From assembly GCA_041737125.1 (NCBI GenBank), contig JBGSSJ010000011.1, positions 33,568 through 97,567 on the forward strand: a stretch of DNA of 64,000 bases. Direction: 5' to 3'. Source of the stretch: Minisyncoccia bacterium. Lineage in GTDB: Bacteria; Patescibacteriota; Minisyncoccia; Phycocordibacterales; UBA9973. Positions within the stretch are counted from its first letter, which is position 1. Every line of letters begins with the position of its first letter. Positions 12,008 to 59,126 of the stretch are shown one piece after another. Both the position numbers and the translations under genes were made by a program. The notes beneath the pieces were generated by a model. That model was not told the origin of the DNA and made no database searches. It saw only the letters and a program-made list of their open reading frames with translations.

Positions 12008-12051
12008 AAATGGCTGTTAATTTCCGCATATGCGGAAATTAACAGCCATTT
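12008..12051. terminator. 44-bp perfect palindrome (aaatggctgttaatttccgcatatgcggaaattaacagccattt) between convergent thrS and 12068..12526
   Basis: perfect inverted repeat, bidirectional terminator candidate. Confidence 0.6.
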
Positions 12052-12067
12052 AAAATATTATTAAAAT

Positions 12068-32500: not shown

Positions 32501-33294
32501 GTCCCCTCGATATAAAGCTCACTTCCTGGAGAAAGTCTGACATTCCCCCCGACATCAAGTGTCTCTGATGGTGATGAAGCAACGTTAACTCCCAATCTGT
32601 TTGTTGAATCATCCCAAAAGAAGTTTGCATTATCTTGTGCAATGGTACTGCCATCAGAGAAGAGGACTGATCCTGAAGTTAGTGATGGAAGTGTGAACTT
32701 TGCATTGATTTGTGATTGTATTCCTGAAGTCACCCCTTTGACATAAGAAATTTCTGTGAGTGATGGATAGGTTGCAGTTGCAAGAGAAGAGAGAGCACCT
32801 GGACCCGAGAAGTATGCAAGCTCATTCGTAGTACCTGAGCCAGATAAACTTCCACAAGCCCCCCATGATGGAGCAGATCCAGTATTACCGATAAGACACT
32901 CACCAGTAATACCTGCAGCAGTGACTCCCATAGCGGAAGTACCGTTACCGTAAATAATTCCGTTGGAAGTAAATGTCCCTGCACCAGTTCCTCCTTGAGC
33001 TACAGTCACAAGTGCATTCGTAGTGAGGATGGTCGCATTCGCATCAGGGAAAGTATAAGTACGGACTCCTGTCTGGTTGTTGGTAACAGCGAAAACTCCA
33101 TCTCCAAGCTCTGCCCATGGGTGGCCTGGGTTCGGTGTCGCTCCACTTACTATTCCGAAAATAGAAAAGGCAACAAAGATAGAAAGTATCGTATACACGA
33201 CATAGTGTATAGAAAATTTAGGAGCAATTTTCCTTAAAATTCTTTGTACGAAATTTGAAATTTGTTGCTTGTAATTTTTAAACATAAAATACAA
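23545..33294 (-). CDS. giant (3249 aa) N-terminally TM-anchored surface protein: tail-fibre-like Gly/Thr/Ser repeat modules, LamG domain, C-terminal lectin-like domain and Pro/Glu-rich tail
   Basis: single uninterrupted ORF; N-terminal TM 'YVVYTILSIFVAFSIFGIVSG'; recurrent 'GNVGIGxxxPxxxLTVGSGDxFQVxSxGAI' modules; LamG 'FTVSLWFKHS...MYIDGRL...WDGEIDEF' (~25960-26420); C-terminal 'RVRVVFDEPYVTTPVITTNITF...FSWVALG' (~23830-24130). Confidence 0.8.
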   Translation of the reverse strand: MYFMFKNYKQQISNFVQRILRKIAPKFSIHYVVYTILSIFVAFSIFGIVSGATPNPGHPWAELGDGVFAVTNNQTGVRTYTFPDANATILTTNALVTVAQGGTGAGTFTSNGIIYGNGTSAMGVTAAGITGECLIGNTGSAPSWGACGSLSGSGTTNELAYFSGPGALSSLATATYPSLTEISYVKGVTSGIQSQINAKFTLPSLTSGSVLFSDGSTIAQDNANFFWDDSTNRLGVNVASSPSETLDVGGNVRLSPGSELYIEGTIPARRAVRLYNSGGLSQGMIDIQRDGAVNIRLNASGDSYFVNAAASLGIGDPSPASMLTVGSGDAFQVNSTGAIVAATGLTTTGTIALTSANTTQATTASALVGNFNSLTTGTGAYLASSSLTSGRLIDIQISGTDAGASQTGLNILTSGATSTNAITTYGAQISNTKTNATSGTNVALYLDASGATTANYGLIVNAGNVGIGTNTPTFPLTVTGAGTFTGSVGVGFNQNLYFGTNSGYTSVSGNGSGTADATSFLQFRAGDGERMRIGGDGNVGIGDTTPAAMLTVGSGDLFQVNSSGAIAAATGITSSGTINFSGLTASKVVFTDASKNLTSTGIGASTDFIKGDGSLDSSTYLTSVGTGVANELTYWSGTNTLGSLATVTYPSLTEISYVKGVTSGIQSQINAKFTLPSLTTGSVLFSNGTTIVQDNANFFWDDTNDRLGLGTASPVSKLTLGATHSSFDSVVGTESVSVSSSGATSGLVFAGESRGASGAFAGALIGLYSNDGGAMSSLDRLGGVLFGGSSSGAQPLRSTAGIAAYTSQAWSDGSAYGTSLRFETTANNSTTRSEKMRIEASGNVTIGSTTSTSLFNVGSAAQFQVTSGGAITAATGITSSGTLTLSTTPTTSAGSYDLITRNTGTGVFEKIASNTLPIFASAITGTPSASTFLRGDGSWSAVSGGLSDLDYGDITVSGTGTVMTIDANTVTDGKLRQSAGVSVIGRETNTTGDVADIVGTGNQVLRLNGGGTALAFGAINIASSSAVSGLLSPTNGGTGVNNSAGKIITLGGALTTSGAFNTTFTSTGTTNVTLPTSGTLYGTATGSFTSADLAGSLTDETGSGLAVFSTSPTFTTDITTPLIIGGTTTTSPLTLRSTSGVGTTGANIIFQTGNNGATEAMRILNSGNVGIGLSPAEKLDVGGNVRLSKGSELYVEGANSSRRVVRLYNGNSDQGRIDIQRNGVAVIVLNANGNSYFRNEAANLGIGDVTPDSAFTVGSTSQFQVDSTGAIIAATGITSSGSITFSGLSTNGFVTTSGGTGALSVTTLGSGISTWLSTPSSANLASALTDETGSGLAVFSTSPTFTTDITTPLVIGGTTTTSPLTLRSTSGVGTTGADIIFQTGNNGATEAMRILNSGNVGIGDTSPASLFTVGSGDLFQVDGSGNTSLFAGADLRFVETGGGTDFAALQAPAAVTASYTWTLPAADASGCLQSNGSGTLSVASCGGAVALSSLSAAGATNTINNADYTQEWQWNTLAGATGLKLSSTSTAAASNAQKIFEVAQSGANATSTQTTYGGYFTNVKTGTSSTNVALYASATGGTDNYALLVPDMGGRVGIGTIAPRGILDVTNGASSGNIYLEALDNVYIGDFSGNGSSVYLAVNGDSPSNGFIFNNGNVGIGDASPASLFTVGNGDLFQIDSSGNTSTLGSITIQNTANNVIPTADSMVVNLTGGTTGIVTDGVDGLSIAMEVGNGTTNTNSGLNITLIPVNTPSGDETFNGLNIANITGTAATENALVIGSGWDSDIRFIDATPQMTLADNGTLVLSDGSSTTNDIFQVGTAISRGNALVYGDLIVKGGTIARSLTGVIDTFIYDTSVDVDAGEWRNSLEMMQRSWATEAKDDGAGDACSISTDDRCGSSAFPRKAIIATTADGLYIFDSADNSLWMKFTQAGTYALGADTNNNPSGVTAQNGVIYVGTNGASATGLYAFDFKQDVLYRYNTTNRTQADINIGNRNSTATYAANAETGFAIINNTVNDVSVNVQTGSMEGRAGTLIAPVDSQGGPMLGVTIIAAATDSGVSVINMGARKVINYSDATNDDYNQVYMTKRGRMYATNETRAQLEEWRGVDTVITTQANGTPTRWYDETLAGNTPITLEGAVPTISTSPSALAVIERGSAAREAAAAGQIDSGDIVFVGTNQGLAEVHTSGGALANASWSKITTKDSATPYMNGGVRSAYLFDDAVGATSTNSAVGNTGTTRNPLDQAGATAPTFGGNGIRGGSVNFNNNSYLCSDANADGTCDSDTDNNVAATSFTVSLWFKHSTTAAADVLFERCYTPATPTAAACIYAGMTTTGTITAGIDDDGTWTTVGTLSMDDGLTSSGTWNDGQWHHFLLTNTDTDLCMYIDGRLAAACDTALAATATLDAAQVLTIGGRCTGANCATGDSFWDGEIDEFTWSAGATTSSGTVSASANRRFLDGRTHLIRPQTSVENADIFSGTTIGSTTATYVPNSFTSLVVEITGGTGAGQTRNIISNDATAFTVAPAWSVTPDATSDYRVSPSKLYGSTNNVTSIAVDAPTQINKTRSLYVGTDDGADGGGISTFTNAGAGGIKTEVHSSDSGIEEDDFGTTWSGTGSDDIKSIAIYTDTILFATGTGIRVERKDVSIKQLQADTLLALEDVRMSLVASGLFGATQDVLGLGQGADLAEYYYSNETLEAGDVVSIEPSQEAGIGKSSRRYQKNLLGVISTRPGLILGPVAENAYAVALSGRVPVKVTTENGPIKVGDLLTSSSREGYAMRATSAGAVIGRVLNEPYGMTSCDAPLPALENVALPEGPWVGGERVEGEAQGEQVQSSTGIQCGYVMLFVGLGESLGQNVEILAQEYGSIEDGHVSVDGLTAELGTQWSIMSFLRATRDDKETNALPLESFFTDRIAAGFEILTPTLIADTVVTSQLTGGIDGSLALVLNNGIFSVKKNSEDAAVMTIDALGNAVFNGKITAQEIEATKIAGFDALIERITALETLLGANAFDALTSVTTANFKATGESTFEGKAQFSGLSFFANSTTFDGSVVFGAQTEFTIPPIFNKDTAGFALIKEEDRRVRVVFDEPYVTTPVITTNITFEVTDNMDDATAEAFFFEDVRHLVVEKDQTGFTIFLNKKAPRDIRFSWVALGVKDPKIVESLVEGLDIEIPTEAPLEQVPQEDDVPSPENPSTELVPEIVTEEIIIEEVTSPDEPAPIIEESTPVPSPKVTVEAPLIIEENTDNTTVSEY
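29095..29335. repeat. ~235-bp intragenic direct repeat, copy 1 (copy 2 at ~29755-29995, ~90% identical)
   Basis: encodes duplicated block 'LTDETGSGLAVFSTSPTFTTDITTPLIIGGTTTTSPLTLRSTSGVGTTGA(N/D)IIFQTGNNGATEAMRILNSGNVGIG'. Confidence 0.8.
31262..31326. repeat. 65-bp 100%-identical intragenic repeat (second copy 32681-32745) within ~230-bp diverged repeats
   Basis: agtgatggaagtgtgaactttgcattgatttgtgattgtattcctgaagtcacccctttgacata in both places; encodes 'SYVKGVTSGIQSQINAKFTLPSLT'. Confidence 0.85.
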
Positions 33295-33404: not shown

Positions 33405-35303
33405 CTAGCGGACTTCATACCCTAGAGACGCTATTTTCTCTGTAATTTTAGACATTATCATATTCACTTCTTCGGTCTCTAGAGTGCGGTCATATGACTG
33501 GAAAATCAATCGATAAGCATAAGATATTTTACCATTTTTCTTGAACATATCCAAGAGTTTTGGCTCCCCTTGTAGCAATTCTGTGCCGAATTCCGTATAA
33601 ACCTGTGAAAGCACACTACTTTCGACATCTTCAGGCACCCAAACAGCAATATCACGCACCATAAATGGATAAAGTGACCACATTTTGAAATACGAAATGT
33701 CTGTAGTCGTGGAGTCAGGAAGTGAAGCAAGAAGTTCGTTATGAGAGCCTTGCGCAGAGCTGGCTCGAGCAGAGAAATTTCCCTCCAAGGAAATATTCGT
33801 GCTCCCAGAAGGAAGCTCCTCCGAAGCATTATCTCGAATAAATTCATCTAAACTCATTTCTTTCATTTCTTTTTTATTTACGAATGCGATATTTAGGAAC
33901 TCTTCCCCATTTTTAAATACCGTCCCAATTTCAAAAATTTTAATTTCATCATGGCCTAGGAATTGAGAATTTAATTTATTTAATTCATATGCATTTCGAA
34001 GTCCATCACTTAGATTCGTGCGCATGAAATTCTTATCACTAGCAGAGGCAAGTACTTCCACTTCACCTTTTTCTGTGAATGCATAAGTCATCACTTCCCT
34101 GTAACCACTCTCTACCAGGTAATTGCGAGCCTTTTTTATATTCTCATAAACAGGATTCTCTTTAGGAGTAAAGTTTATCTTTGGCAATTGTGGAATTACT
34201 TTATCGTAGCCGATTATGCGGCCAATTTCTTCTGCTATGTCGCTAGTATTTGTAAGATCTAGTCGCATAGGTGGCACCTCGAGAGTAAAGTTATTACCAT
34301 CTTTCTTATAAGTGAAATTATACCTCTTCAATATGTCTTCTACCTCCTCACCTGTTATACTTATACCTAGTATTTTGTTTATATTTTCCAAGGTAAAATC
34401 CACTTTTACTTCTTTTTGTAAATCTTTATTCGGGTATATATCCACCACATCTTCAAATGTTGCTTCCGGGCAAATTTCAGCTATCAATCCTGAAAGTTCA
34501 AGCATAGCAAAGTCACAAAGTGAGGGCGATAAATCATTCTCAAATCTTTTCGCTGAATCAGAAAGAAGTCCTAATCTGCGCGCAGTTTTCCGGACAGATG
34601 TCGGATCGAAATTCGCAACTTCAAGCACTATGTCAGTCGTCCCATCCGTAATTCCAGAATCAAGTCCACCTTTGACTCCGCCAAGTGCTAAAATTTTCTC
34701 ACCACTAGTTATAGTCAAATCATTTTCCTTTAACTTCGCAAGTATCCCTTCTCTGCCTACGACTTTCAATTCCTCTCCCTCTTTAGCATTAGTAATTCGT
34801 AATTCGTAATTCGTAATTTTCCCTAAATCAAATGCGTGTGTCGGCTGACCACAGTCATACATCACAATATTTGTCGCATCAACAATATTATTTATACTTC
34901 TCTGTCCTATGTTCTCTAAATATTCTACTACCCACTTTGGTGATGGACCTATCTTTATATTACGGACAATTCTCGCAGAATATCTACGGCAACTCGGTGA
35001 ATTAATTTCTACTTTTAGGTCAGTCGTTACGGATGGAGGAACCTTGTACATGGAAGTAGGGTCCTTAAAAGTTAACTCCAAAAGCCCCGCAAGCTCACGA
35101 GCAACACCCTGGTGTGATAGCAAATCATGAGCCCGATTCGGTAATATACCCAAGTCATAAATCCAATCTTTCTTGCCATCTATACTTTCAATAGCAGTAA
35201 CACTTTCAACTTCACAAAGATGATAAGTAAAAATACTCTCTAGATGATGAGGTTCAGGGATATCAGATATATATGATTCTAGCCAATTGTAAGAAATAAA
35301 CAT
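33405..35303 (-). CDS. pheT: phenylalanyl-tRNA synthetase beta subunit, short form (632 aa)
   Basis: 'MFISYNWLESYI...' N-terminus, B3/4 and B5 regions, C-terminal anticodon-binding-like domain. Confidence 0.85.
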   Translation of the reverse strand: MFISYNWLESYISDIPEPHHLESIFTYHLCEVESVTAIESIDGKKDWIYDLGILPNRAHDLLSHQGVARELAGLLELTFKDPTSMYKVPPSVTTDLKVEINSPSCRRYSARIVRNIKIGPSPKWVVEYLENIGQRSINNIVDATNIVMYDCGQPTHAFDLGKITNYELRITNAKEGEELKVVGREGILAKLKENDLTITSGEKILALGGVKGGLDSGITDGTTDIVLEVANFDPTSVRKTARRLGLLSDSAKRFENDLSPSLCDFAMLELSGLIAEICPEATFEDVVDIYPNKDLQKEVKVDFTLENINKILGISITGEEVEDILKRYNFTYKKDGNNFTLEVPPMRLDLTNTSDIAEEIGRIIGYDKVIPQLPKINFTPKENPVYENIKKARNYLVESGYREVMTYAFTEKGEVEVLASASDKNFMRTNLSDGLRNAYELNKLNSQFLGHDEIKIFEIGTVFKNGEEFLNIAFVNKKEMKEMSLDEFIRDNASEELPSGSTNISLEGNFSARASSAQGSHNELLASLPDSTTTDISYFKMWSLYPFMVRDIAVWVPEDVESSVLSQVYTEFGTELLQGEPKLLDMFKKNGKISYAYRLIFQSYDRTLETEEVNMIMSKITEKIASLGYEVR

Positions 35304-35730: not shown

Positions 35731-36558
35731 TTAGAATTGATTAATTCTAAGGTCTCCTTGGTAAAATAATCGCACGTCAGGAATATTCCAGCGAATCATC
35801 GCTATACGATCTACTCCTCCACCGAACGCAAAGCCTTGTACTTTCTCAGGATCTAGTCCTGCATTACGCAGAACATTCGGATGTAGCATTCCTCCACCCA
35901 TCATTTCGAGCCACCTACCGTTGAACTTCGCATGTACTTCTACAGAAGGCTCAGTGAATGGGAAGAAGCTGGGACGGAACTCTATTTCTACATCAGGACC
36001 AAGTGCTTTCTTGTAGAATTCTATAAGCACTGCTTTCATATGTGAAAGATTTACATTCTCCCCAACCATGCATCCATCTATCTGATAGAATTGCATTTCA
36101 TGAGTTATGTCTGTAGCTTCATTACGGAAAACTTTCCCGACTGTGATAGAAGCAATTTCTTTCAACCCTTCATCTACCATTCTTTTAAGTGTACGCGCTG
36201 TCACATTCGTCGCGTGAGTACGTAGCACATGGGCGGAGTCGGAAGTTGGATACGAAATAGTCTGGCCGAGCGTATTCGCGAGGAGATCCGAGGACTTTTC
36301 GGAGACTACTTCCGACGAAGCATTAACATTCTTAATATAGAAAGTATCCTGCATGTCGCGAGCAGGGTGATCTTTAGGTACATTTAGGGCGTCGAAGTTA
36401 TACCAAAGAGTTTCAAGTTCTGGGCCTGTAGCTACCTCAAAACCGAGCTTTGAGAATACTTCATAGGCCTCATCTTGTAATATAGTAAGTGGGTGCAACC
36501 CGCCTGCCACGCTATGCGTAACATTTCGGGCAGGGCTTCCTTTAGAATCTTTAGACAT
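35731..36558 (-). CDS. pheS: phenylalanyl-tRNA synthetase alpha subunit, short form (275 aa, catalytic core only)
   Basis: class II motifs; '[13 protein letters not shown]', '[19 protein letters not shown]', '[13 protein letters not shown]'. Confidence 0.85.
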
Positions 36559-46133: not shown

Positions 46134-47501
46134 TTACATTAATGCTAACTTGGGAGCTATACCCGTATAAGATGTCGGAGTCCATTTCTTGAGCTCCAAC
46201 TTTAGCTTATTTGAGATTTTCAAATTATCGATAAATTGTGCAAAGTCCTCCATAGTCACTTCTTTGCCACGAGTAAGATCTTTGAGTGCTTCATAAGGAA
46301 TCGGGTACCCTTCACGACGAAGGACTGTCTGTATGGCTTCGGCTACTATCTCTGGATGTGCAAGTAAATCATATAGGATACGAGCTTCATTCACACTTAT
46401 CTTACCAAGACCCTTCGCAAGTGAACTATATGCAAGCAAAGAGTGGCCAAACGCAGTTCCAAATGCACGCTCTACTGTAGAGTCGGACAGGTCGCGCTGA
46501 AGTCGTGATATAGGTAACTTGTTTGAGAAGAATGTGAACAAAGCATTGGCAAGACCCAAGTTCCCTTCACTATTCTCAAAATCAATCGGGTTTACTTTGT
46601 GAGGCATAGTCGATGAGCCCACTTCACCCTTCTTCACTTTCTGTATTAGGTATCCATCACTTATATACCGCCACATATCTTGATTACAATCTATAAGAAT
46701 ATTATTAATATGGCGAATCATATCGGATAGCTCAACATAAGTATCATGTGGTTCTATCTGAGTTGTTATCAAGTTGGGGCAGAGTGATACACCTTCGACT
46801 TTGCCCAGGCGCTCTATGAACTTTTTCGTAAAGACGGGCCAATTAACACTAGGGTATGCTGCCACAAATGCATTGTAATTACCAGTCGCACCGTTTAGCT
46901 TGGCCATTACTTTAAATTTATTTAGGAGGAATATTTGTCTTCTAAGCCTATCGGCGAAAACTGCAAACTCTTTGCCTAAAGTTGTAGGGCTTGCGCTCTG
47001 ACCATGAGTGCGGGCAAGCATCGGAGTACGCGCATACACCTTGGCATATTCTTTCAAAGTTTTGTTTATATCTGTAAGTGCGGGGAGGATTACATTCTTC
47101 GTGCCGGATGCAAGCATGAGTGCGTATGCGCAATTATTCGTATCCTCAGATGTTAGTCCGAAGTGCACCCACTCGAGAGTATTCGCTAGGCTCGTATTCT
47201 TTAATTCATCTTTCATGAAGTACTCGACTGCTTTCACATCGTGATTGGTTACCTTCTCGTGCTTCTTGATCTTTTTATAAGAGGCCTCAGTAAAATTCTG
47301 ATATAAAGCACGGACCTTCCCTACTTCAACACTTGTGAGCTTGCGTAAACCAATACCTTTCACTTCGGACAAACTAATAAAAAATTCGCACTCCACCATG
47401 ACTCTGTACTTCATAAGTGCATACTCAGAAAAGTATGGCGCAAGTGCGCGAGTCTTCTCGTAATATCGTCCGTCTAGTGGGTTTATGTTTGTGCTTTGCA
47501 T
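46134..47501 (-). CDS. purB: adenylosuccinate lyase
   Basis: fumarate-lyase signature 'GSSTMPHKVNPIDFE'; 455 aa. Confidence 0.9.
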   Translation of the reverse strand: MQSTNINPLDGRYYEKTRALAPYFSEYALMKYRVMVECEFFISLSEVKGIGLRKLTSVEVGKVRALYQNFTEASYKKIKKHEKVTNHDVKAVEYFMKDELKNTSLANTLEWVHFGLTSEDTNNCAYALMLASGTKNVILPALTDINKTLKEYAKVYARTPMLARTHGQSASPTTLGKEFAVFADRLRRQIFLLNKFKVMAKLNGATGNYNAFVAAYPSVNWPVFTKKFIERLGKVEGVSLCPNLITTQIEPHDTYVELSDMIRHINNILIDCNQDMWRYISDGYLIQKVKKGEVGSSTMPHKVNPIDFENSEGNLGLANALFTFFSNKLPISRLQRDLSDSTVERAFGTAFGHSLLAYSSLAKGLGKISVNEARILYDLLAHPEIVAEAIQTVLRREGYPIPYEALKDLTRGKEVTMEDFAQFIDNLKISNKLKLELKKWTPTSYTGIAPKLALM

Positions 47502-47504
47502 TTT

Positions 47505-47609
47505 TTTCTAAGCAAAGTCAGAATAATTTTACCAGAGGGGCTGGTGAGGCTCGACGGAGCGAACAATGAGGAAATTTCTCCCAAGAAATTTCCGGACCCT
47601 CTGGGAAAG
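47505..47609 (-). promoter_or_regulatory. structured intergenic element, copy C (long imperfect inverted repeat enclosing AAATTT-type hairpin), upstream of purB
   Basis: gcaaagtcagaataattttaccagaggg ... ggaaatttctcccaagaaatttcc ... ccctctgggaaagttattttgactttgc. Confidence 0.5.
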
Positions 47610-48581
47610 TTATTTTGACTTTGCTACACTTTTCAAATTATTAATAATCCTATCAATTATCGGCAGGCTGAAATCATGATCGAATGCCTTGCCGGTAATC
47701 GTCTCATATATCTCTATATACCTGCGAGAAAGCTCGGCGACAAGTGCCGGTGGTGCCTCGGGCAGTACTTCATCTTTATACGGATCACAATTGTCTTTGA
47801 ACCACAGACGGAGGAACTCTTTATCAAAATACTCTGGCTCCTGCCCCATACTTAATCTATCATTATATGTGTCTTTCTTCCAATACCGAGATGAGTCGGG
47901 TGTATGTATCTCATCTATAAGGGTCAGCTTGCCTTCACTATCAAGACCAAATTCATACTTCGTATCTACAAGTATAAGTCCACTACGCTCTGCTATCTCT
48001 TGCCCTCGAGCAAATAGTGCCTTTGATACACGCTCTACTTCATCTGTCATCTCCTGTGTGAGTAATCCTTCCGCTACAATTTCTGCCGGACTAATAGGCC
48101 TGTCATGCTCATCGGACTTCGTTGTCGGAGTGAATACTGCTTCAGGTAACTTTTGATTCTTATCCAAACCATCTTCAAGCACAAAATTTCCGAAATCACG
48201 CTTGCCATCTTTATAAGCAGTCCAAAGTGAAGTACCTGTGACTCCAGTAATATATCCACGCATAACACACTCTATCGGTAGTGGTGTACACTTCTGTGCT
48301 ACCAAAACATTCGGGTCGGGCGCACTTATAACATGGTTCTTTATTATATCTTTCGTATTCTCGAACCAGAATAAGCTAATCTGATTAAGCACTTCACCTT
48401 TGAATGGTATATGAGCAATAATCCGATCGAAAGATGAGTGCCTGTCTGTAGCAACCAGCTTAATAGTCTCCTCTCCAATATAAATATCACGAACTTTCCC
48501 CACCTTCTTAACTCCTAATCCTTCTAAATTAGTTTCTTTGATTACGTCGTTTATATGTTCTTGTATTTTTTCGATATTCAT
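47610..48581 (-). CDS. purC: SAICAR synthetase (long, eukaryote/Bacteroidetes-like form)
   Basis: 'LILVDTKYEFG' and flanking conserved blocks; 323 aa. Confidence 0.85.
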   Translation of the reverse strand: MNIEKIQEHINDVIKETNLEGLGVKKVGKVRDIYIGEETIKLVATDRHSSFDRIIAHIPFKGEVLNQISLFWFENTKDIIKNHVISAPDPNVLVAQKCTPLPIECVMRGYITGVTGTSLWTAYKDGKRDFGNFVLEDGLDKNQKLPEAVFTPTTKSDEHDRPISPAEIVAEGLLTQEMTDEVERVSKALFARGQEIAERSGLILVDTKYEFGLDSEGKLTLIDEIHTPDSSRYWKKDTYNDRLSMGQEPEYFDKEFLRLWFKDNCDPYKDEVLPEAPPALVAELSRRYIEIYETITGKAFDHDFSLPIIDRIINNLKSVAKSK

Positions 48582-48585
48582 TATT

Positions 48586-49626
48586 TTATTTAAATACTAC
48601 CTTCTTGTCGCCTTTGATAATCTTCCCTATTTCAAAAATTTTAAATTGTGGGTAATCTTTTAAGATATTCTCAATCTTTTCTTTTTCCTTTTGTGGAACT
48701 ATCAGAACAAGTCCGATACTCATATTGAATACTCTATACATTTCTTCCTCTGGCACCTCACCCACTTTCTGTAAGTATGAAAATAGAGGAAGCATAGGCC
48801 AAGTACCTTTCGCAATCTCTGCATCAAGAGCCTCGGGCAATACTCGCGGAATGTTCTCAATGAATCCCCCACCTGTTATGTGAGCTATGCCTCGGATATC
48901 TATACCACGATCAAGCATCGAAAGCACAGGCACAGAGTAATTCACATGTACTTGTAGCAATGCTTCACCTACACTCATGCCAAGCTCAGGAACATTGTCC
49001 TCCACTTTATGACCTGCAATATTAAAAAGTATTTTACGTGCAAGGGAAAAGCCATTCGTATGTAGACCACTCGAAGGAAATCCGAGTATGATGTCGCCTT
49101 CTTGTATTCTATCCCCTGTTATAATTTTATCTTTTTCTACTACTCCAGTAATGCACCCGGCTATATCGTGCTCGCCACTTGTATACACTCCTGGCATCTC
49201 TGCAGTCTCGCCACCGATGAGGGACACTCCGTTCTCCCTGCAAGCTTTCGCCATACCTCCCACCATTGCTTCCATCACAATAGGATCGAGCTTATCATGC
49301 GCTACATAGTCAAGGAATGTAAGTGATCGCGCACCCATAGCAAGCAGATCATCACAGCAGTGATTCACTATATCCTCTCCGACTGTATCGTATTTATTCA
49401 TCATCCGAGCGACAGAGAGCTTCGTCCCTACACCATCGATACTCTGCACGAGGACTGGGTGATTGTAAGATTTCAAAACCTCCCCTATATCATAGAGCCC
49501 ACCGAAGCTACCGATACCAGTAAGCACTGCGCTTGTGTGAGTAGAAGCGACGTCTTTTTTTATACGAGAAACTGCTTCATTCCCCGCATCTATATTTACT
49601 CCTGATTGTGTGTATAAGTCTGACAT
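48586..49626 (-). CDS. purM: phosphoribosylformylglycinamidine cyclo-ligase (AIR synthetase)
   Basis: 'YTQSGVNIDAGNEAV', 'VLVQSIDGVGTK', 'CITGVVE' typical PurM blocks. Confidence 0.9.
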   Translation of the reverse strand: MSDLYTQSGVNIDAGNEAVSRIKKDVASTHTSAVLTGIGSFGGLYDIGEVLKSYNHPVLVQSIDGVGTKLSVARMMNKYDTVGEDIVNHCCDDLLAMGARSLTFLDYVAHDKLDPIVMEAMVGGMAKACRENGVSLIGGETAEMPGVYTSGEHDIAGCITGVVEKDKIITGDRIQEGDIILGFPSSGLHTNGFSLARKILFNIAGHKVEDNVPELGMSVGEALLQVHVNYSVPVLSMLDRGIDIRGIAHITGGGFIENIPRVLPEALDAEIAKGTWPMLPLFSYLQKVGEVPEEEMYRVFNMSIGLVLIVPQKEKEKIENILKDYPQFKIFEIGKIIKGDKKVVFK

Positions 49627-49627
49627 G

Positions 49628-50140
49628 TTATATCGAATATTTCTTATATCCGACTTTTTGTAATTTCTTCGCTTTGCCTTTCACTTCTACATTCATCTTC
49701 TTCTTATAATCTACCATCTTCTTCTGTAATTTCTTATCTGTAAGTCCTAGTATCTGTATTGCAAGTAATCCTGCATTCTTCGCTCCATTTACTGCAACAG
49801 TAGCTACGGGTACACCAGGCGGCATTTGTGCAATAGACAAAAGTGAATCAAGTCCGTCCATCGTCTTCGTCTTTACAGGAACACCTATCACAGGGAGCAC
49901 AGTCATGGACGCAGTGATTCCCGGCAAATGTGCTGCACCTCCAGCACCTGCAATAATAACTTTCAATCCTTTGGTGATGGCTTTTTTTGAATATTCAAAT
50001 AGCACATCAGGTGTGCGATGCGCTGATACGATAGTCATCTCATAAGCCACATTAAAATCATCAAGAATACTTGCAGCATCTTGCATAACCGCAAGATCTG
50101 AATCCGAACCCATTATTATTCCTACTTTTATTTTTTTCAT
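49628..50140 (-). CDS. purE: N5-CAIR mutase
   Basis: '[19 protein letters not shown]...' ; ORF extends to 50185 but upstream part overlaps conserved intergenic element, so Met at 50140 preferred. Confidence 0.85.
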
Positions 50141-50149
50141 ATTATTTTT

Positions 50150-50298
50150 ACTGAAACAAAATAGTCTTTGAGAAATGTCTTGCACAGGAGCTTAGAAAAT
50201 AAATGAGTGTAACGATTATTATTTTCTTGAGCGACGAGCAGAGAAAATTTGAAGCTTCAAATTATTCGTGCATTTCGAGAAGACTATTTTGTGAAAGT
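50150..50298 (-). promoter_or_regulatory. structured intergenic element, copy A (between purK and purE)
   Basis: shares with copy B: 'aaaatagtctNtgagaaaNgNcttgcNcagg', 'cgagcagagNaaatt'+hairpin (aaatttgaag/cttcaaatt), 'tttcgaNaagaNtNattttNNNgaaag'; outer 10-11-bp complementarity aaaatagtct/agactatttt. Confidence 0.6.
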
Positions 50299-50299
50299 T

Positions 50300-51427
50300 C
50301 TAAATCTCTATACTCTTCCTTACTTCTAAAGCTTTCTCTTCTGCCTCTTCTAGGCTATCTGCAAGCGCTGTTATATGCCCCATTTTGCGTTCCTGGCGTG
50401 TATCCATTTTACCATATATATGGACTGACAGAGAAGGTTCGCCATCATACGTATAATTCCCATCAAATAAAGCTTCACCCTCACGACCACCCAAGATATT
50501 CACCATCACTGCATGATGAGCAAGAGGCAAAGGATCCACAAGTGGCATGCCAGTGATAGCTCGTATGTGAGCTTCAAACTGAGACATGGAAAACGCTTCT
50601 ATGGTGTGGTGACCCGAGTTGTGCACTCGCGGAGCTATCTCATTCACTAGCACTTCCCCATCTTCAGTTAAGAACATTTCAACTGCATACACTCCGACAC
50701 CACCAAGTACAGACAAAACACGTTCTGCAATAGTTTTGGCTTTATTTATAACTTCATGTGGCACTGGTGCAGGCGAGCGCACAATGTGGCAAATATTATT
50801 CTTGTGCACTGTCTCCACCACCGGGAAAGAAATAATCTCCCCGTCCACACCGCGCGCAGAAACTACTGCAAGCTCTTTCGTAAATGGCACGAACTTCTCG
50901 GCATAAAGAGTACTTTTTGAAAGTTCCTTAAATGCATCTTCTATATCATCTTTACTTTTTATAACTCTATTCCCTCGCCCATCATATGCATCAAAGCGAG
51001 CTTTCAGTAAGTATGGATAGCCGAAAATCTCGCCTTGCTTGTAGCAATCATCTACACTATCTATGAGAGCGAAGTCCGCGACTGGTATGTCGTGCTCACG
51101 GAGGAATACTTTCTGTTCAAATTTATCTTTAATAATTTTAAGTACGTTCGGTTCTGGGTTCACGGATACACCCCGCACTACTAGCTCCTCTAGTGCTTCA
51201 GCATTGGCGGACTCTATCTCGAAAGTTATGAAGTCGGACACTTCAGCAAGCTTGAAAATACTTTCTTTGTCTTTGAAGCTTCCGACTATTTGTGCATCTG
51301 ATACCTGTCCTGCAGGCGATCCCGCTTGTGGGTCGAGCACAGTCACATAGAAACCCAACTTGTGAGCTGCTTGTGCGAGCATACGGCCTAGCTGTCCCCC
51401 ACCGACAATTCCAATTCTTTGCTTCAT
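50300..51427 (-). CDS. purK: N5-CAIR synthetase (ATP-grasp)
   Basis: 'MKQRIGIVGGGQLGRMLAQAA' N-terminus and ATP-grasp architecture. Confidence 0.9.
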   Translation of the reverse strand: MKQRIGIVGGGQLGRMLAQAAHKLGFYVTVLDPQAGSPAGQVSDAQIVGSFKDKESIFKLAEVSDFITFEIESANAEALEELVVRGVSVNPEPNVLKIIKDKFEQKVFLREHDIPVADFALIDSVDDCYKQGEIFGYPYLLKARFDAYDGRGNRVIKSKDDIEDAFKELSKSTLYAEKFVPFTKELAVVSARGVDGEIISFPVVETVHKNNICHIVRSPAPVPHEVINKAKTIAERVLSVLGGVGVYAVEMFLTEDGEVLVNEIAPRVHNSGHHTIEAFSMSQFEAHIRAITGMPLVDPLPLAHHAVMVNILGGREGEALFDGNYTYDGEPSLSVHIYGKMDTRQERKMGHITALADSLEEAEEKALEVRKSIEI

Positions 51428-51444
51428 ATTCTAACTTTAACATC

Positions 51445-51472
51445 GTTTGGGCAATAAAAAAAGGCCGGAGGC
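51445..51472 (-). terminator. intrinsic terminator (ggcc-tccg-ggcc stem + T7) downstream of purD/small ORF on minus strand
   Basis: minus strand aaaggcctccggcctttttttatt. Confidence 0.6.
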
Positions 51473-51492
51473 CTTTGTTTAGGGTTTTATTT

Positions 51493-51714
51493 TTAGTGTC
51501 CATCCTGAAAGTGGAGATCGTCGTCTATTAAACGAAAATCATTCTCGGGTTGATAAATCTTTTTCTTAGATACCTTTTCAGACTCCAAAAAACCTGATCC
51601 ATCCGACACTCCACCTACAAAGTAGGAGGTTAAGGAAGTTTCCAAAAAATCATTTAACCTTTGACTCTTCCCTTCTCGATCAAAAGCTATTATTTGCTCA
51701 TTAGTCATAGCCAA
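51493..51714 (-). CDS. small hypothetical protein (73 aa) inside pur operon
   Basis: ORF between purD and terminator; not PurS-like; weak. Confidence 0.3.
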   Translation of the reverse strand: MAMTNEQIIAFDREGKSQRLNDFLETSLTSYFVGGVSDGSGFLESEKVSKKKIYQPENDFRLIDDDLHFQDGH

Positions 51715-51771
51715 ACAATTTAAATTCTTGAAAAATGAAGATACAATTAATTTAAGCCTACAATAAAAATA

Positions 51772-53061
51772 CTACTTTAGCAATAGTGCTTTTTTGCCTA
51801 TGTCTCTCCTGTATTGCATACCTTCAAAATGGATTTTATTTACAGCATTATATGCAGTCTGAAGAGCTTCCTCCAAAGTATTCCCCACAGCGCTTACTCC
51901 CAATACTCGCCCACCATTTGTGACCAAATTCCCGTCTTTCATGGTTGTCCCCGCATGGAATACTATGACATGTGGATCTTGCTCCGCATCTGCTATGCCA
52001 CTTATAACTTTACCTTTCGTATAGTCACCTGGGTACCCACCGGACGCAAGGACGATAGTGCAGGCGTAGCAATCTTTCCATTTAATTTCGAGTTGTGAGA
52101 GCTTGCCTTCTATGCAAGCGAGGAATATGTCAACAATGTCACTTTCAAGAAATCGCATATATGTCTGTGTCTCTGGGTCGCCAAAGCGCGCATTATACTC
52201 TAGAATTTTCGGACCATTCTCTGTAAGCATGAGTCCAGGATAAAGCACACCTGAGAATGGCACACTCTCGTGCGTCATCGATACTAGAGTAGGAGCCACT
52301 ATCGTCTCTTCGATCTTCTGTATCAGACCATGAGATACAAATGGAAGCGGGGCAATAGTTCCCATGCCACCTGTGTTCGGACCCTTGTCGCCTTCACCCA
52401 CTCTCTTATGATCCTGAGAAGTCGGGAAAAGAGAATGATTCTTACCATCTGAGAAAGCATGTATAGATATCTCAGGGCCCGTCATGAAGTCTTCGACGAC
52501 AATCTCTCGCCCTGATTCACCGAATATATTACGAACGAGAATATCCTCGGCAGCAGCGCGTGCCTCAGGATACGTCATGCATATGAAGACTCCTTTACCG
52601 AGAGCAAGGCCACTTACTTTGACTACTTGAGGTCTGTCTTGCGCTGCTAGGTATGCGTCTGCTTCAGCGAAATCAGTGAAAACTTTGAACTGTGCTGTGG
52701 GAAGATTGTTGCGGTCCATGAACTTCTTCGCAAATGCTTTCGAAGATTCAAGCTGAGCGGCTTCTTTTGTAGGGCCGAAAATTTTCAGTTCATTTGCTTG
52801 GAATAAATCCACAATACCGAGAGCAAGCGGATCATCGGGCAGTGCAAGAGTCAGGTCAATATTCTCGTTCAAAGCGAATTCTAGGAGCGCATGTATATCT
52901 GTGGCTTTGATTTCAATATTGGTGCCAAGCATCGCTGTACCAGCGTTCCCTGGTGCGAAGAACAGCTCCCCACATTTCGGTGATTGCGCAACCTTCCATC
53001 CTATTGCATGTTCCCTACCACCCGAACCTATTATTAAAATTTTGTATTTTTCATTAGGCAT
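51772..53061 (-). CDS. purD: GAR synthetase
   Basis: 'KILIIGSGGREHAIGWKVAQSP' N-terminus, ATP-grasp core. Confidence 0.9.
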   Translation of the reverse strand: MPNEKYKILIIGSGGREHAIGWKVAQSPKCGELFFAPGNAGTAMLGTNIEIKATDIHALLEFALNENIDLTLALPDDPLALGIVDLFQANELKIFGPTKEAAQLESSKAFAKKFMDRNNLPTAQFKVFTDFAEADAYLAAQDRPQVVKVSGLALGKGVFICMTYPEARAAAEDILVRNIFGESGREIVVEDFMTGPEISIHAFSDGKNHSLFPTSQDHKRVGEGDKGPNTGGMGTIAPLPFVSHGLIQKIEETIVAPTLVSMTHESVPFSGVLYPGLMLTENGPKILEYNARFGDPETQTYMRFLESDIVDIFLACIEGKLSQLEIKWKDCYACTIVLASGGYPGDYTKGKVISGIADAEQDPHVIVFHAGTTMKDGNLVTNGGRVLGVSAVGNTLEEALQTAYNAVNKIHFEGMQYRRDIGKKALLLK

Positions 53062-53656
53062 TTTTAGATAATTTACTTAATACTTCTATATAAAGTTCGT
53101 TTTCTTTTTTCTTTAATCTACTGTAGAGCGATTCTACATCCTCATTATCTTCCACCTTCTCATATGTGCGACCAAGTACTGGGCCGAAGTCGAAGTTCAA
53201 AGTTAGAAAGTGAATAGATGAACCAGCATACGTACACTTGTGATCGAGGAAATTCTGTATCGCTTTCGTAGTGAGCATTCCTTTGTTCCAGAGCCCCTCT
53301 GTGCCATCTGGGTTCAAAGCTTGCCCATCTACTGTATCTGGAATAAGCCCCGGATGCAAATTTAGAATCCTATTCGGATACGCAAGTATAACTTCATCAA
53401 GTATTATCTGCTTCCAGCCAGCAAGGCATATATAGTCAGGATTTAATTCTTGGAGAAGTGAAAGGAGTTCTTCTTTCTTCGGGCATATTTTAATATCTAA
53501 ATTATTCTTCCTTGCACGCTCGAGTCCAAGAGCACTTGTATCATCCGAGACCACAGCACTAATAGTAGCATTTATCTGCCCCCCATTCACACCATCAATA
53601 ATTGCTTGTAGATTGGTGCCCGTACCAGTATTGGAAATAAGTACAACAATTTTCAT
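53054..53656 (-). CDS. purN: GAR formyltransferase
   Basis: 'MKIVVLISNTGTGTNLQAIID', 'ILNLHPGLIPD' (HP motif), 'GSSIHFL'; overlaps purD start by 8 bp. Confidence 0.9.
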   Translation of the reverse strand: MKIVVLISNTGTGTNLQAIIDGVNGGQINATISAVVSDDTSALGLERARKNNLDIKICPKKEELLSLLQELNPDYICLAGWKQIILDEVILAYPNRILNLHPGLIPDTVDGQALNPDGTEGLWNKGMLTTKAIQNFLDHKCTYAGSSIHFLTLNFDFGPVLGRTYEKVEDNEDVESLYSRLKKKENELYIEVLSKLSKNA

Positions 53657-53659
53657 AAT

Positions 53660-53790
53660 TTAATAATGAAGTAAAAATAGTCTCTGAGAAAAGACTTGCG
53701 CAGGCGGGTAGCCGAGCAGAGCAAATTCCGAGCACGGAATTATGTGTACTTTTCGAAGAGAGTTATTTTTACGAAGTTTATTCATATTAT
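53660..53790 (-). promoter_or_regulatory. structured intergenic element, copy B (between purF and purN)
   Basis: as copy A; internal hairpin here is aattccg-agc-acggaatt (compensatory relative to copy A). Confidence 0.6.
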
Positions 53791-55182
53791 TTATTCTTTC
53801 GGTACATCTCTAGTAAACTCATTCACACGTTCGAATAAATCTATCGGGTACTCTCCGGTAAATGCAGATAGAGAGAATCGTTCTTTCGGTAAGCCTGTCG
53901 CCTTCACCATGCCGTCCACCGATAAGAATGAAAGTGATGTCGCTCCAAGATACTCACAAATTTCTTGGACAGTTTTCTGTGAACCTATAAGGTCAACTTG
54001 CTTCGGAGTATCAATACCATAAAAGTCCGGGAACTTCACAGGGGGTGAAGCCACAAGGAAATGCACTTCCGTGGCTCCCGCTTCGAAAAGCATTTTCACT
54101 ATTTGCCTACTAGTTGTACCGCGTACTATCGAGTCATCCATCACACCGACGCGCTTACCAGTGATAACTTCAGTAAGTGGCAGGAGCTTCATCTTCACTT
54201 TCTTATCCCTATCGTCTTGAAGAGGTTCTATGAATGTGCGATGTATGTATCTATTCTTCACTAATGCCATTTCGAAAGGTATACCTGTGGCTTGTGAGTA
54301 ACCAATAGCTGAAGGGACTGACGTCTCGGGTACAGGGATAATAATGTCTACTTCTTTCGGATACTCTTCCGCTAAGATTGCGCCGAAGTTCTTGCGAACT
54401 TCATATACTGACTTACCAAGCATATTACTATCTGGCCTCGCAAAGTACACGAATTCAAATATATCAAACTTGTGTTCCCTATTCTCTAAAATTTTACTTT
54501 CTACTCCGTCTTTCGTGACTATCACTAGTTCGCCGGGTTCTACTTCGCGTACAAATTCTGCGCCGACAGTAGTAAGAGCACATGTCTCTGAAGCGAAGAA
54601 TATCTTATCTTTCCGTTTACCCATTACAAGTGGTCGCATACCAGAAGAATCACGGAAAGCAACGAGGCAGTCAGTAGATAATGATACACATGAGAATGCT
54701 CCAGTGAAAAGTGGGTAGACTTTCTCGATAGCTTGAGCTAAAGTTACACCTTCTTTCATACACTTACCTATTGCATGAGCCATAAGTACGGAGTCCGACA
54801 TGTCATGAAGTGGTAGACCGCTATCCTTTAAAAATTCCATCAAAGCATCCACACTAGGGAGATTACCGTTATGGGCAAATGCAATATTATCCACAACAAC
54901 AGGTTGAGCGTGCTCTGCTCCACCACCACGTGATGTCGAATAACGGTTGTGGCCAATAGCACCAAATCCTGGCAACCCTTGTAATATCTCTTCTGTGTAT
55001 ACCTGACTAACTAAGCCATGAGCTTTATAAGAGAAAATTTCTTTGCCGTCAGTAGATGCAATACCTGAATACTCTTGACCTCTATGTTGTAGAGCAAACA
55101 ATCCGAAATAAGTTTGCCTTGAAGCAATCTCTGTATCACCAAAAACTCCAAACACCGCACATTTCTCATTGAGTTTATCCAT
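53791..55182 (-). CDS. purF: amidophosphoribosyltransferase
   Basis: N-terminal 'KCAVFGVFG' Ntn-Cys, PRTase motif 'VGVMDDSIVRGTT'. Confidence 0.9.
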   Translation of the reverse strand: MDKLNEKCAVFGVFGDTEIASRQTYFGLFALQHRGQEYSGIASTDGKEIFSYKAHGLVSQVYTEEILQGLPGFGAIGHNRYSTSRGGGAEHAQPVVVDNIAFAHNGNLPSVDALMEFLKDSGLPLHDMSDSVLMAHAIGKCMKEGVTLAQAIEKVYPLFTGAFSCVSLSTDCLVAFRDSSGMRPLVMGKRKDKIFFASETCALTTVGAEFVREVEPGELVIVTKDGVESKILENREHKFDIFEFVYFARPDSNMLGKSVYEVRKNFGAILAEEYPKEVDIIIPVPETSVPSAIGYSQATGIPFEMALVKNRYIHRTFIEPLQDDRDKKVKMKLLPLTEVITGKRVGVMDDSIVRGTTSRQIVKMLFEAGATEVHFLVASPPVKFPDFYGIDTPKQVDLIGSQKTVQEICEYLGATSLSFLSVDGMVKATGLPKERFSLSAFTGEYPIDLFERVNEFTRDVPKE

Positions 55183-59039: not shown

Positions 59040-59126
59040 CGGAGAGGAGAGGATTTGAACCTCCGAAGGCTTTAACACCTTGCTGCCTTTCCAAGGCAGT
59101 GCACTAGACCACTATGCGACCTCTCC
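59040..59126 (-). tRNA. tRNA-Ser (anticodon GGA), class II with long variable arm, G73 discriminator, CCA not encoded
   Basis: GGAGAGG-UC-GCAU-AGUGGUCUA-GUGC-A-CUGCC-UUGGAAA-GGCAG-[CAAGGUGUUAAAGCCUUC]-GGAGG-UUCAAAU-CCUCU-CCUCUCC-G folds as cloverleaf. Confidence 0.85.

Follow-up and report, generated by a model that had tools for sequence, protein, structure and literature searches.

REP/BIME sequences are simple hairpins of 20–40 bp in which one end is marked by GTAG or CGTC, and a RAYT gene is usually located next to them; RAYT proteins are IS200/IS605-like Y1 transposases that mobilize REP/BIME. ERIC sequences (also IRU) are reportedly imperfect palindromes of ~127 bp that lie between the genes of operons, where the DNA is transcribed, and may point either way. 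They are present in some relatives and absent from others, variants with internal insertions occur, and their conservation across genera is unexpectedly above that of the surrounding DNA. ERIC/IRU are listed in Table 1 of PMC2229807, a source that also gives the criteria for bacterial MITEs: a repeated unit of <200 bp without coding capacity, terminal inverted repeats, and a transcript that forms a long stem-loop. Filled and empty sites, target-site duplication, 5′-TA-3′ termini, A+T-richness, and a parent IS or transposase with matching ends are further criteria (PMC2229807). The Correia/NEMIS elements, which are Neisseria MITEs, are small non-coding inverted repeats that are co-transcribed with their neighbors as long hairpins and show filled and empty sites between strains (PMC2229807). 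They exist in size forms of 107 and 155 bp, owing to an internal segment of ~50 bp, are substrates of RNase III, and have conserved 24–26-bp terminal inverted repeats together with a TA duplication (PMC2229807). Rickettsia palindromic elements (RPE) are palindromic units of ~100–150 bp in the reduced genome of a host-dependent bacterium (Ogata et al. 2000, as summarized in PMC2229807). They are intergenic or in-frame in conserved housekeeping proteins at tolerant sites, they form several families, and no transposase is known for them.

In the window, i.e., the whole 64-kb stretch of DNA analyzed here, copies of two palindromic families are positioned as follows.

33731..33820, plus strand: copy D (family 1, canonical core), within the PheT ORF; covariance model (CM) score 70.1 bits
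36238..36316, minus strand: copy of family 2, an unrelated palindrome, in-frame in PheS (35731–36558, minus strand)
47511..47625, plus strand: copy C (family 1, subfamily with the "C-type" core), fills the purC/purB spacer
50158..50290, plus strand (the CM orientation, antisense to pur): copy A (family 1, "A-type"), fills the purK/purE spacer
53661..53789, plus strand: copy B (family 1, canonical core), fills the purF/purN spacer; CM score 85.9 bits

Copies A, B, and C are homologous imperfect palindromes, and each folds into a three-way junction in which two inner hairpins are closed off by a long outer stem. The genes on both sides of the three spacers were confirmed by Pfam, and all are on the minus strand. 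Copy A is 133 nt long with the outer stem AAAATAGTCTTTGAGAAATG / CATTTCGAGAAGACTATTTT, and its P3 hairpin bears a 47-nt extension. Copy B, with its inner palindrome at 53673–53770, has the outer stem TAATAATGAA / TTCATATTA, which is the stop/start junction, duplicated and inverted. In copy C, one arm makes up the final five codons of purC together with its stop codon (47610–47625). Relative to shuffled sequence, the minus-strand folds of elements A, B, and C have z = −5.5, −5.8, and −2.9, and the plus-strand folds z = −5.2, −4.8, and −2.3, respectively. An earlier note on this DNA had described a family of three elements in the purine operon, and the shared blocks and hairpin arms that it quoted are all present as written (aaatttgaag/cttcaaatt in A, aattccg/cggaatt in B, and ggaaatttct/agaaatttcc in C). 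The three elements are real and lie where the note placed them, with their limits refined as listed above, but the family is larger: copy D, first located by block search and then aligned and translated, lies in PheT, and there are >100 other contexts. A CM trained on 104 copies from other genomes together with B and D matches exactly four copies in the 64 kb, namely A–D, with nothing else scoring >17 bits. Among these, A (50172–50276, 46.7 bits, E = 6e-10) and C (47523–47615, 46.1 bits, E = 9e-10) were absent from the training set.

A scan with the core pattern gave at least 118 loci, at least 114 of these in Patescibacteria-type MAGs. Among the matches listed are ~80 Parcubacteria/Paceibacteria species representatives, often with several copies per genome, and the CM adds 12 further copies within the fetched loci; there are >110 copies. 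The unit is 66–176 nt long (median 111) and has no element-specific ORF; the GC content of the copies is 0.32–0.51 vs 0.40 for the window. The conserved central module of ~57 nt, CTTGCRCAG-[P3 hairpin]-CGAGCAGAG-N-AAATT-[P2 hairpin]-AATTAT-NN-GTG, makes up the base of both hairpins at the three-way junction. The outer stem that closes the junction is ~20 bp long (median 20); its sequence varies by subfamily and copy while self-complementarity is kept, and the terminal sequence is conserved within subfamilies only. In 106 distinct copies, 91.5% of the cells pair compared with ~45% in slid controls, and covariation is strong, with both partners changed in 22 of 33 pairs (563 cells), a number reached by none of 500 shuffles; all 14 scored pairs of the outer stem covary. 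The observation of the earlier note that pairing is kept while the sequence changes is borne out for its three copies. Rfam 15 gave no match for the whole window at the gathering threshold and none at E ≤ 10 for 47400–53900, and searches of viral contigs, phage records, and plasmids gave no matches to the element, which points to neither a known RNA nor a vector-borne element. The note would have given up its reading for a simple AT-rich repeat or a known Rfam family; the element is neither, yet it is an interspersed repeat that is not specific to the operon.

Collectively, we consider it likely that A, B, C, and D belong to a non-coding, non-autonomous interspersed palindromic repeat that is MITE-like, behaves like RPE, and is widespread in the Parcubacteria/Paceibacteria branch. 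A MITE/REP-like element was the last-listed alternative of the earlier note, and the evidence favors it. The family is new and apparently undescribed in Patescibacteria, whereas the kind of element is already known. Like RPE, it is palindromic and of similar length, sits in the reduced genome of a host-dependent bacterium, occurs between genes and in-frame in conserved housekeeping proteins at sites where an extra peptide is tolerated, coexists with another family, and has no known transposase. However, it belongs to an unrelated taxon, not Rickettsia, and is apparently unrelated in sequence; it has a three-way junction with a near-invariant core and variable arms; and it spans a super-group of at least ~80 species, whereas RPE is confined to one genus. 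The likeness to Correia comprises small non-coding inverted repeats, co-transcription, and filled and empty sites, and the 47-nt P3 extension of A-type copies is comparable to the ~50 bp size dimorphism. In contrast to Correia, which is not typically in-frame in essential proteins, the Patescibacteria element is found in-frame, its termini vary, and no duplication is proven. With ERIC it shares the imperfect palindrome, placement in operon spacers in either orientation, presence and absence, internal-insertion variants, and high conservation relative to the flanks. ERIC, though, is an enterobacterial element from a different phylum, of low copy number, essentially extragenic and without the three-way junction core. 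REP/BIME differ in that the unit here measures ~110 nt, CGTC occurs merely as one of several variable P3 loops, albeit the most frequent, and no Y1 (RAYT) gene lies near any copy (3-kb neighborhoods, 118 loci).

The pur junctions of relatives are mostly overlaps or 1–3-nt spacers, and both filled and empty sites were found for purF/purN, purK/purE, purC/purB, and purE/purM in up to 30 relatives. At purF/purN, the element is present in the window only when compared with seven relatives; in six of these the spacer is −5 to +4 nt, and in L121 it consists of 32 unrelated nt (the junction in L119 and L120 reads TAAtATG or TAAaATG). The purC/purB junction is without the element in 12 of 13 relatives; L119 carries an A-type copy there and the window a C-type copy. 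In approximately half of the 30 relatives tabulated, above all the more distant ones, purK/purE is a 4-nt overlap or a 1–3-nt spacer. Elsewhere this junction holds A-type, C-type, or another variant, family 2, unrelated hairpins, or one-arm remnants; the core in L122 is nearly identical to the C-type, and in L154 a family-1 copy is nested beside a family-2 arm. Different subfamilies, as well as a second, unrelated palindromic family, settled in the pur junctions independently of one another, and left decayed remnants. Within L119, the two A-type copies share 97.8% identity. As the junctions of most relatives are empty, the pur operon can do without the element.

The same repeat is found inside protein-coding genes. 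Fifteen of ~108 copies (~14%) are inside long ORFs, where they point either way and in some cases occupy equivalent sites in orthologues, with PheT, ArgS, TsaD, DusB, MnmA, and RlmB-like proteins as in-frame hosts. Host-family HMM matches in the insert-bearing proteins are split around the insert, and an NCBIfam scan of seven such proteins at E ≤ 1 returned host-family models only, with no match over the inserts and no indication of the families RPE-1 to RPE-8. In the window, copy D lies in-frame in the PheT ORF (33405–35303, minus strand), antisense to the model orientation; its translation, ...ELPSGSTNISLEGNFSARASSAQGSHNELL..., falls in the linker that connects a catalytic-like domain with the FDX-ACB domain. 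Neither Pfam nor NCBIfam places a domain over this stretch, and the length of PheT homologues is hypervariable exactly at this site.

The size without coding capacity, the self-complementary termini with a stem-loop, and the filled and empty sites are those of a MITE, and the in-frame palindrome in conserved protein genes is as in RPE. A parent IS was not seen: within 3 kb of the copies (118 loci) there is no recurrent transposase, transposase-like neighbor, or other mobilizing enzyme. Moreover, the conservation pattern is that of a classical MITE reversed, with a near-invariant center and variable termini, and this counts against the MITE reading. Direct repeats of at least 5 nt flank 21 of 103 copies vs 9.5 expected (maximum in 300 permutations, 22), a weak signal. 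TTTCA was rejected as a flanking repeat, as it belongs to the element itself. Copy B is flanked by TAAATAATATGAA ... TAAATTATGAA, compared with TAAtATGAA in the empty site, and some type-1 copies (L119, L122) read TAAAATAG...CTATTTTA, while the outermost pairs are heterogeneous overall.

The element has inserted many times and in either orientation, both between stop and start codons that lie very close together in compact operons and in linkers of housekeeping proteins that tolerate it; sometimes it is lost and one-arm remnants stay behind. Under the mobile-repeat reading, having no gene of its own, it would have to be moved or copied in trans. The folded center, rather than terminal inverted repeats, may be what is recognized, in single-stranded or cruciform DNA, as suggested by the conserved center and variable arms, the asymmetry of one strand (see below), and an orientation bias relative to gene direction of 23:10 (p = 0.035). 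Recognition of hairpins in single-stranded DNA as for REP would explain the conserved fold and free stems, the strand asymmetry, and a bias with respect to the direction of genes and hence of replication. Copies might be held 95–98% alike by copying within the genome or by gene conversion. The pur copies would simply form part of the pur transcript, read antisense to the model orientation, in which they fold into stable hairpins (−32 to −36 kcal/mol). By-product effects on pur mRNA are conceivable, such as loss of translational coupling or RNase III-type cleavage, rather than purine-responsive regulation; that Correia elements are RNase III substrates suggests, by analogy, such a side effect. 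On the best reading, any effect on pur expression is incidental.

It could instead be argued that the repeat is a host-beneficial structured module, i.e., that selection keeps the core because a Patescibacteria-specific factor binds or cuts its RNA or DNA form, and that it spread through usefulness and not selfishness alone. Operon mRNA processing or stabilization, transcription punctuation, and chromosome organization (as proposed for REP/BIME and ERIC) would be among its roles. The conservation of copy A argues for this possibility. With the copy at purK/purE of L119 it shares 94.9% identity, whereas for the same pair the flanking pur genes are 69–79% identical and purK third codon positions 47.6%, and the conservation ends at the palindrome edges. 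Such conservation is not expected of an insertion that decays passively, and it counts against the mobile-repeat reading; the difference from the flanks points to constraint or real selection, to recent spread by independent insertion, or to gene conversion. In addition, many candidate phylum-level groups within Parcubacteria have a core that is extremely similar, although the exact-match search pattern partly imposed the invariance of some core columns and the copies found by the CM alone include several divergent cores. The orthologous in-ORF copies in MnmA (L046, L048, L069) maintain pairing through double changes, which could indicate selection on structure. The orientation bias fits as well, and the identifiable host proteins are all tRNA or rRNA enzymes. 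Nevertheless, we regard a beneficial module as rather unlikely: most relatives' junctions are empty, different families are interchangeable at one junction and their remnants decay, copies occur in both orientations and in-frame in coding sequence, and the 3-kb neighborhoods of the copies in 118 loci yielded no associated protein.

That the plus strand encodes small RNAs or antisense RNAs is very doubtful. In 96 of 106 copies it is this strand, in the CM orientation, that folds more stably, the mean difference being 6 kcal/mol, and the oppositions in the outer stem comprise 85 G.U vs 52 A.C. However, the asymmetry, with tandem G.A and G.T pairs on one strand, stems mostly from a purine-rich internal loop and not from wobble pairs, and a single-stranded DNA intermediate, as in the mobile-repeat reading, accounts for it too. 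Copies are also located in ORFs and on either strand with respect to neighboring genes, and promoter-like sites around the window copies are not above chance; neither these nor terminator-like sites are commoner across the region than in shuffled sequence. A terminator consensus scan flags 51476–51460 and two short sub-hairpins inside C only, and the total is below the shuffle expectation. An intrinsic terminator (GC-rich stem and U-run) was rejected, the calls in C being its hairpin arms and not the whole element. As to the statement in the earlier note that all copies lie on the transcribed strand, the better-folding strand is the plus strand, antisense to the pur genes, and in a palindrome the claim has no discriminating meaning.

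Finally, the placement of A, B, and C immediately before the start codons of three pur genes, at junctions that are otherwise gap-free, together with their stable folds and the features shared with purine, ZTP/pfl, and PRPP riboswitches (placement in front of pur genes, a three-helix junction, and a variable closing stem), would suit a riboswitch, attenuator, or RNase III processing site for purE, purN, and purB, the roles that the earlier note listed first, but this is scarcely credible, as it is contradicted by the distribution of the copies, which are present in >100 unrelated contexts of ~80 genomes beside assorted housekeeping genes among which no partner recurs (adjoining RecA, DnaK, EF-G, EF-P, IleRS, and tRNA genes) and in-frame inside the proteins listed above, occur in both orientations, are absent from most orthologous operons (see the purF/purN and purC/purB junctions), and are replaced at one and the same junction by different subfamilies or even families, while Rfam matches them to neither ZTP, purine, PRPP, nor any other family and the better-folding strand is antisense to pur mRNA.

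Family 2, with the core GTCCTCGGATCTCCTC...GCTCGGCCAGAC, also fills purE/purM in L119 and purK/purE in L125 and L154. Its copy in PheS, where the insert encodes 27 residues, is the same phenomenon as family 1 in a separate family.

Inspection of the sequence found A, B and C, the three copies in the pur operon, where an earlier note had placed them, with all of the shared blocks and hairpin arms that it had quoted. Each folds well beyond its dinucleotide shuffles on both strands (z -2.3 to -5.8), in line with their description as structured elements. In a three-way MAFFT alignment the copies have blocks in common, and A carries a 47-nt extra segment; the fold common to all three is a long outer stem (P1) around two hairpins. 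This common shape, together with folding well above the shuffles, indicates that the original observation is real. An unfiltered covariance model of the family (family 1) finds exactly four copies in the window, the fourth (D) inside a protein-coding sequence:

33731 to 33820, plus strand: D, in the PheT ORF (33405-35303, minus strand); 70.1 bits, in the training set.
47511 to 47625, plus strand: C, purC/purB junction; 46.1 bits, outside the training set.
50158 to 50290, plus strand: A, purK/purE junction; 46.7 bits, outside the training set.
53661 to 53789, plus strand: B, purF/purN junction; 85.9 bits, in the training set.

AT-rich long hairpins at 11957-12053, 1975-2022 and 5985-6029 score 12-17 bits, match the outer-stem part of the model only, without the core, and are probably ordinary intergenic terminator-like palindromes.

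The Pfam-based gene order is purL-purQ-purF-[B]-purN-purD-(small ORF and terminator)-purK-[A]-purE-purM-purC-[C]-purB-ndh. All genes of this part of the window are on the minus strand, so that the strand read by the model is antisense to them. Other features of the region are:

51428 to 51771, minus strand: purD/purK gap of 344 nt, holding an ORF of about 70 codons (approximately 51494-51707).
51476 to 51460: intrinsic terminator after this ORF, the sole convincing one in the region.
59040 to 59126, minus strand: tRNA gene of 87 nt (Rfam, 55.9 bits), directly upstream of purL.

Because of the terminator in the purD/purK gap, the pur "operon" is probably two transcription units. Relatives, too, have a small ORF at this place. 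At the purC/purB junction, the last five codons of purC and its stop codon (47610-47625) lie within an arm of C; hence the C-terminus of PurC has been rewritten by the insertion. In L119, a locus fetched from another genome, the purC stop codon likewise comes from an element (TAAAATAG). The 47-nt segment of A extends its P3 hairpin (ggagcttagaaaataaatgag...ttattttcttgagcgac) and is present too in a copy of a different Nomurabacteria MAG (L034:4198-4325). Hence the long form propagates as a subfamily, as the 155-bp Correia form does, and the size dimorphism of canonical and A-type copies recalls the 107/155-bp forms of Correia.

Copy D came to light when one conserved block was searched for with relaxed criteria (match at 33766-33780), and its flanking sequence aligns with A-C. 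It is in-frame in the 632-residue PheT ORF, within a linker outside all PheT domain models. Among 60 PheT homologues of related Patescibacteria this site is hypervariable in length; several carry the peptide SESTNISLLGNFSARAS... as in the window, and others have different recurrent peptides or none. A structured, in-frame element in an essential synthetase is unlike the behaviour expected of a pur regulator. Of about 108 copies, 15 are located within long ORFs. Their hosts, where identifiable, are PheT, ArgS, TsaD, DusB, MnmA and an RlmB/TrmH-like methyltransferase, and in each the family HMM match is split around the insert. Either orientation is found, even at one site of orthologues, and the inserts in DusB come after GNPWLF. 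The NCBIfam search gave no match over the inserts, to an RPE model or any other, and the insert peptides, run as 43-residue segments against a database of 5.8 billion proteins, gave 15 word candidates, none of which scored.

A second, unrelated palindromic family (family 2) behaves similarly:

36238 to 36316, minus strand: family-2 copy, in-frame in the PheS ORF (35731-36558), with the core GTCCTCGGATCTCCTC...GCTCGGCCAGAC.
L119:8805-8910: family-2 copy outside the window; others are in the purK/purE spacers of the loci L125 and L154.

Translations of family 2 in three frames and two orientations match the other recurrent peptides at the hypervariable PheT site of relatives (VLGSP..., SSDLL..., EEIRG...). 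With PheS included, the identifiable in-frame hosts (PheT, PheS, ArgS, TsaD, DusB, MnmA, RlmB/TrmH-like) all handle tRNA or rRNA, as compiled from loci L011, L018, L032, L034, L039, L046, L048, L069, L087, L100 and L109 and from PheT and PheS of the window. This could be a real bias, or could reflect only which genes reduced genomes retain, together with a small sample.

The extent of family 1 was determined by an exact-match scan for the core pattern AATTTNCTCTGCTCG-N(5-35)-CTGYGCAAG in one genome per species, which gave at least 118 loci, at least 114 of them with a full element. Among the matches listed, these full elements are spread over about 80 MAGs, and four matches outside CPR are without the remaining core. 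The MAGs are labelled Nomura-, Zambryski-, Lloyd-, Yonath-, Kaiser- and Taylorbacteria, Paceibacteria, Parcubacteria, Minisyncoccia and generic Patescibacteria. Many genomes have several copies, and one 8-kb locus has three. Five copies are cut by contig ends (L017:5504-5558, L042:3602-3656, L085:1-78, L088:7910-8000 and L124:1992-2105), which suggests that MAG assemblies break at the repeat. Near-identical flanks of the element also occur in differently named MAGs (L003/L068, L043/L079, L028/L089 and L038/L118). One of these, L068, matches the Parcubacteria genome RAAC4_OD1_1 in spite of its label "Saccharibacteria", which casts doubt on the "Candidatus Saccharibacteria" labels of the TPA bins.

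In model orientation the element reads P1 5' arm - CTTGCRCAG - P3 apical hairpin - CGAGCAGAG - N - AAATT - P2 apical hairpin - AATTAT - NN - GTG - P1 3' arm. Part of the invariance of the core is imposed by the exact-match search pattern; copies found by the model only form several divergent core subfamilies with the architecture unchanged. Among 106 distinct copies, standard pairs occupy 91.5% of cells compared with about 45% when partners are slid, and both sides have changed in 22 of 33 pairs (563 cells), a value reached in none of 500 shuffles. All 14 scored P1 pairs covary, as do three apical P3 and five P2 pairs. Quasi-palindromes are subject to templated correction during replication. 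From this established behaviour, such correction could keep and extend complementarity without selection on an RNA.

The pur operons of relatives, fetched through PurK homologues, were compared junction by junction with that of the window (L numbers are loci of other genomes).

Contents of the pur junctions in the window and in relatives.
purF/purN: B (134 nt) in the window; -5 to +4 nt in six of seven relatives (TAAtATG in L119, TAAaATG in L120); 32 unrelated nt in L121.
purC/purB: C-type in the window; from overlap to 25 nt in twelve relatives; A-type copy in L119.
purK/purE: A-type in the window and in L119; L122 has a C-type core; L131 and L132, with PurK at only 60% identity, have another family-1 variant; L125 and L154 have family 2; L142 and L161 have unrelated hairpins; in L120 (family 1) and L121 (family 2) a one-arm remnant is left; in about half of 30 relatives, chiefly more distant ones, the two genes overlap by 4 nt or lie 1-3 nt apart.
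purE/purM: 1 nt in the window; family-2 copy in L119; canonical family-1 copy next to a leftover family-2 arm in L154.

The pur junctions are thus colonised repeatedly and independently, with subsequent decay, and are the only places where the compact operon tolerates extra DNA. Given this repeated colonisation, C is more than a degraded copy: it does differ from A and B, as had been noticed, and belongs to a core subfamily of its own that is also found in L122 and, more distantly, in L073. The proposal that A-C are pur-specific regulators is not borne out, given a widespread family, an in-frame copy in PheT, and pur junctions that are empty or differently filled in relatives. The alternative that had been listed beside it, a MITE/REP-like element, fits: the A-D family is a widespread RPE/MITE-like palindromic element of Parcubacteria, apparently undescribed, with three copies that happen to lie in the pur operon. 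No description of such elements in Patescibacteria turned up in full-text searches of the literature. An Rfam scan, which had been proposed as a check, assigned no family and gave no relevant match, either over the whole window at the gathering threshold or over 47400-53900 at E <= 10.

Of the bacterial MITE features as summarised in PMC2229807, the element shares size, inverted repeats, stem-loop and filled/empty sites; TA termini, target-site duplication and a parent transposase are not clearly among its features. With the Rickettsia RPEs (PMC2229807) it shares their defining behaviour, in-frame fusion to conserved proteins. The majority of copies occupy tight intergenic gaps between ordinary housekeeping genes. 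In conservation and operon location the element resembles ERIC.

Insertion into pre-existing terminator hairpins, which would account for the unique outer stems, may apply elsewhere and is ruled out for the pur copies, since no hairpin is present at the empty sites. Wobble pairing had at first appeared to speak strongly for a plus-strand RNA: free folding gives 314 vs 117 G.U pairs, and in 96 of 106 copies it is the model strand that folds more stably (mean 6 kcal/mol). In fixed register, however, the excess is modest (85 G.U vs 52 A.C); it is independent of host-gene direction, and the main source of the strand energy difference is a purine-rich tandem G.A internal loop. The asymmetry is therefore the element's own and not that of the host transcript. 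It would agree better with a single-stranded intermediate during propagation of the element than with selection on pur mRNA. Where the flanking genes are co-directional, the model strand runs against them in 23 cases and with them in 10 (p = 0.035); for copies inside ORFs the counts are 10 against the gene and 5 with it, and convergent and divergent contexts are found as well. A link to tRNA genes is not favoured, as about 5 of 110 copies are adjacent to one (three of them at one orthologous tRNA-Cys site), which is probably close to chance for an intergenic element. With ends taken from the folded structures, target-site duplication gives a weak signal only. The candidate duplication TTTCA is part of the element, because the 7-nt flanks recur at a different junction; at B, the stop/start junction is apparently duplicated (TAAATAATATGAA ... 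TAAATTATGAA vs TAAtATGAA in the empty site). No autonomous partner was found near the copies: the 648 ORFs within 3 kb cluster into housekeeping families only, with no recurrent family and no transposase. Terminator or promoter function is rejected, as consensus scans found such sites at or below shuffled-sequence frequency; within C, the two calls that resemble terminators correspond to its own hairpin arms. A phage or plasmid vector is dismissed by zero matches in IMG/VR contigs, INPHARED phages and PLSDB plasmids.

Copy A is more conserved than its neighbours. Between the window and L119 it is 94.9% identical, compared with 69-79% for purK, purE, purC and purB and 47.6% for third codon positions of purK; the few spacer bases beyond the palindrome have diverged. 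Within L119, its two A-type copies share 97.8% identity. This level excludes passive decay and calls for recent copying, gene conversion or purifying selection on the whole unit. A source for copying or conversion would have to be slowly changing or horizontally shared. A bolder reading, which this result keeps in play and which we consider rather unlikely, is that active selection acts across Parcubacteria on the three-way-junction core as a nucleic-acid module, the recognition structure of a so far undescribed structure-specific mobilisation or host enzyme. If so, that enzyme would recognise a single-strand or cruciform form, and the family would be a new class of prokaryotic repeat, with the centre conserved instead of the termini, that time and again reshapes essential proteins of tRNA and rRNA handling, in a bacterial radiation that is among the largest. 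That selection, or frequent horizontal sweeps, would then lie behind the 95% identity of orthologous-site copies, compared with 48% at purK third positions.

Irrespective of that reading, the family is unusual: its centre is conserved and its arms vary, it is spread on a phylum scale, and it is better conserved than the genes around it. The genomes of Patescibacteria (CPR) are very small and streamlined, and little mobile DNA is usually ascribed to them. With its presence in about 80 or more species, the family would be the first RPE-like system outside Rickettsia-type endosymbionts of which the literature searches gave a trace, one that fills stop/start junctions and extends aminoacyl-tRNA synthetases and enzymes of tRNA modification by peptides of 30-40 residues. 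The mobility of RPE-like elements and their toleration in essential proteins have long posed a question, for which hundreds of filled, empty and remnant sites over a deep phylogeny provide material. In practical terms, a false lead is removed (A-C are no new purine riboswitches), the strong covariation of the elements can mimic structured-RNA discoveries, "hypervariable" regions in protein alignments are inflated by them, and MAG assemblies are probably broken at their copies.

One further feature of the window was recorded:

23545 to 33294, minus strand: giant ORF of 3249 residues, with many internal direct repeats (families D1-D7) and a Laminin_G_3/concanavalin-like domain.

Its product is probably a large surface protein of a type common in Patescibacteria.
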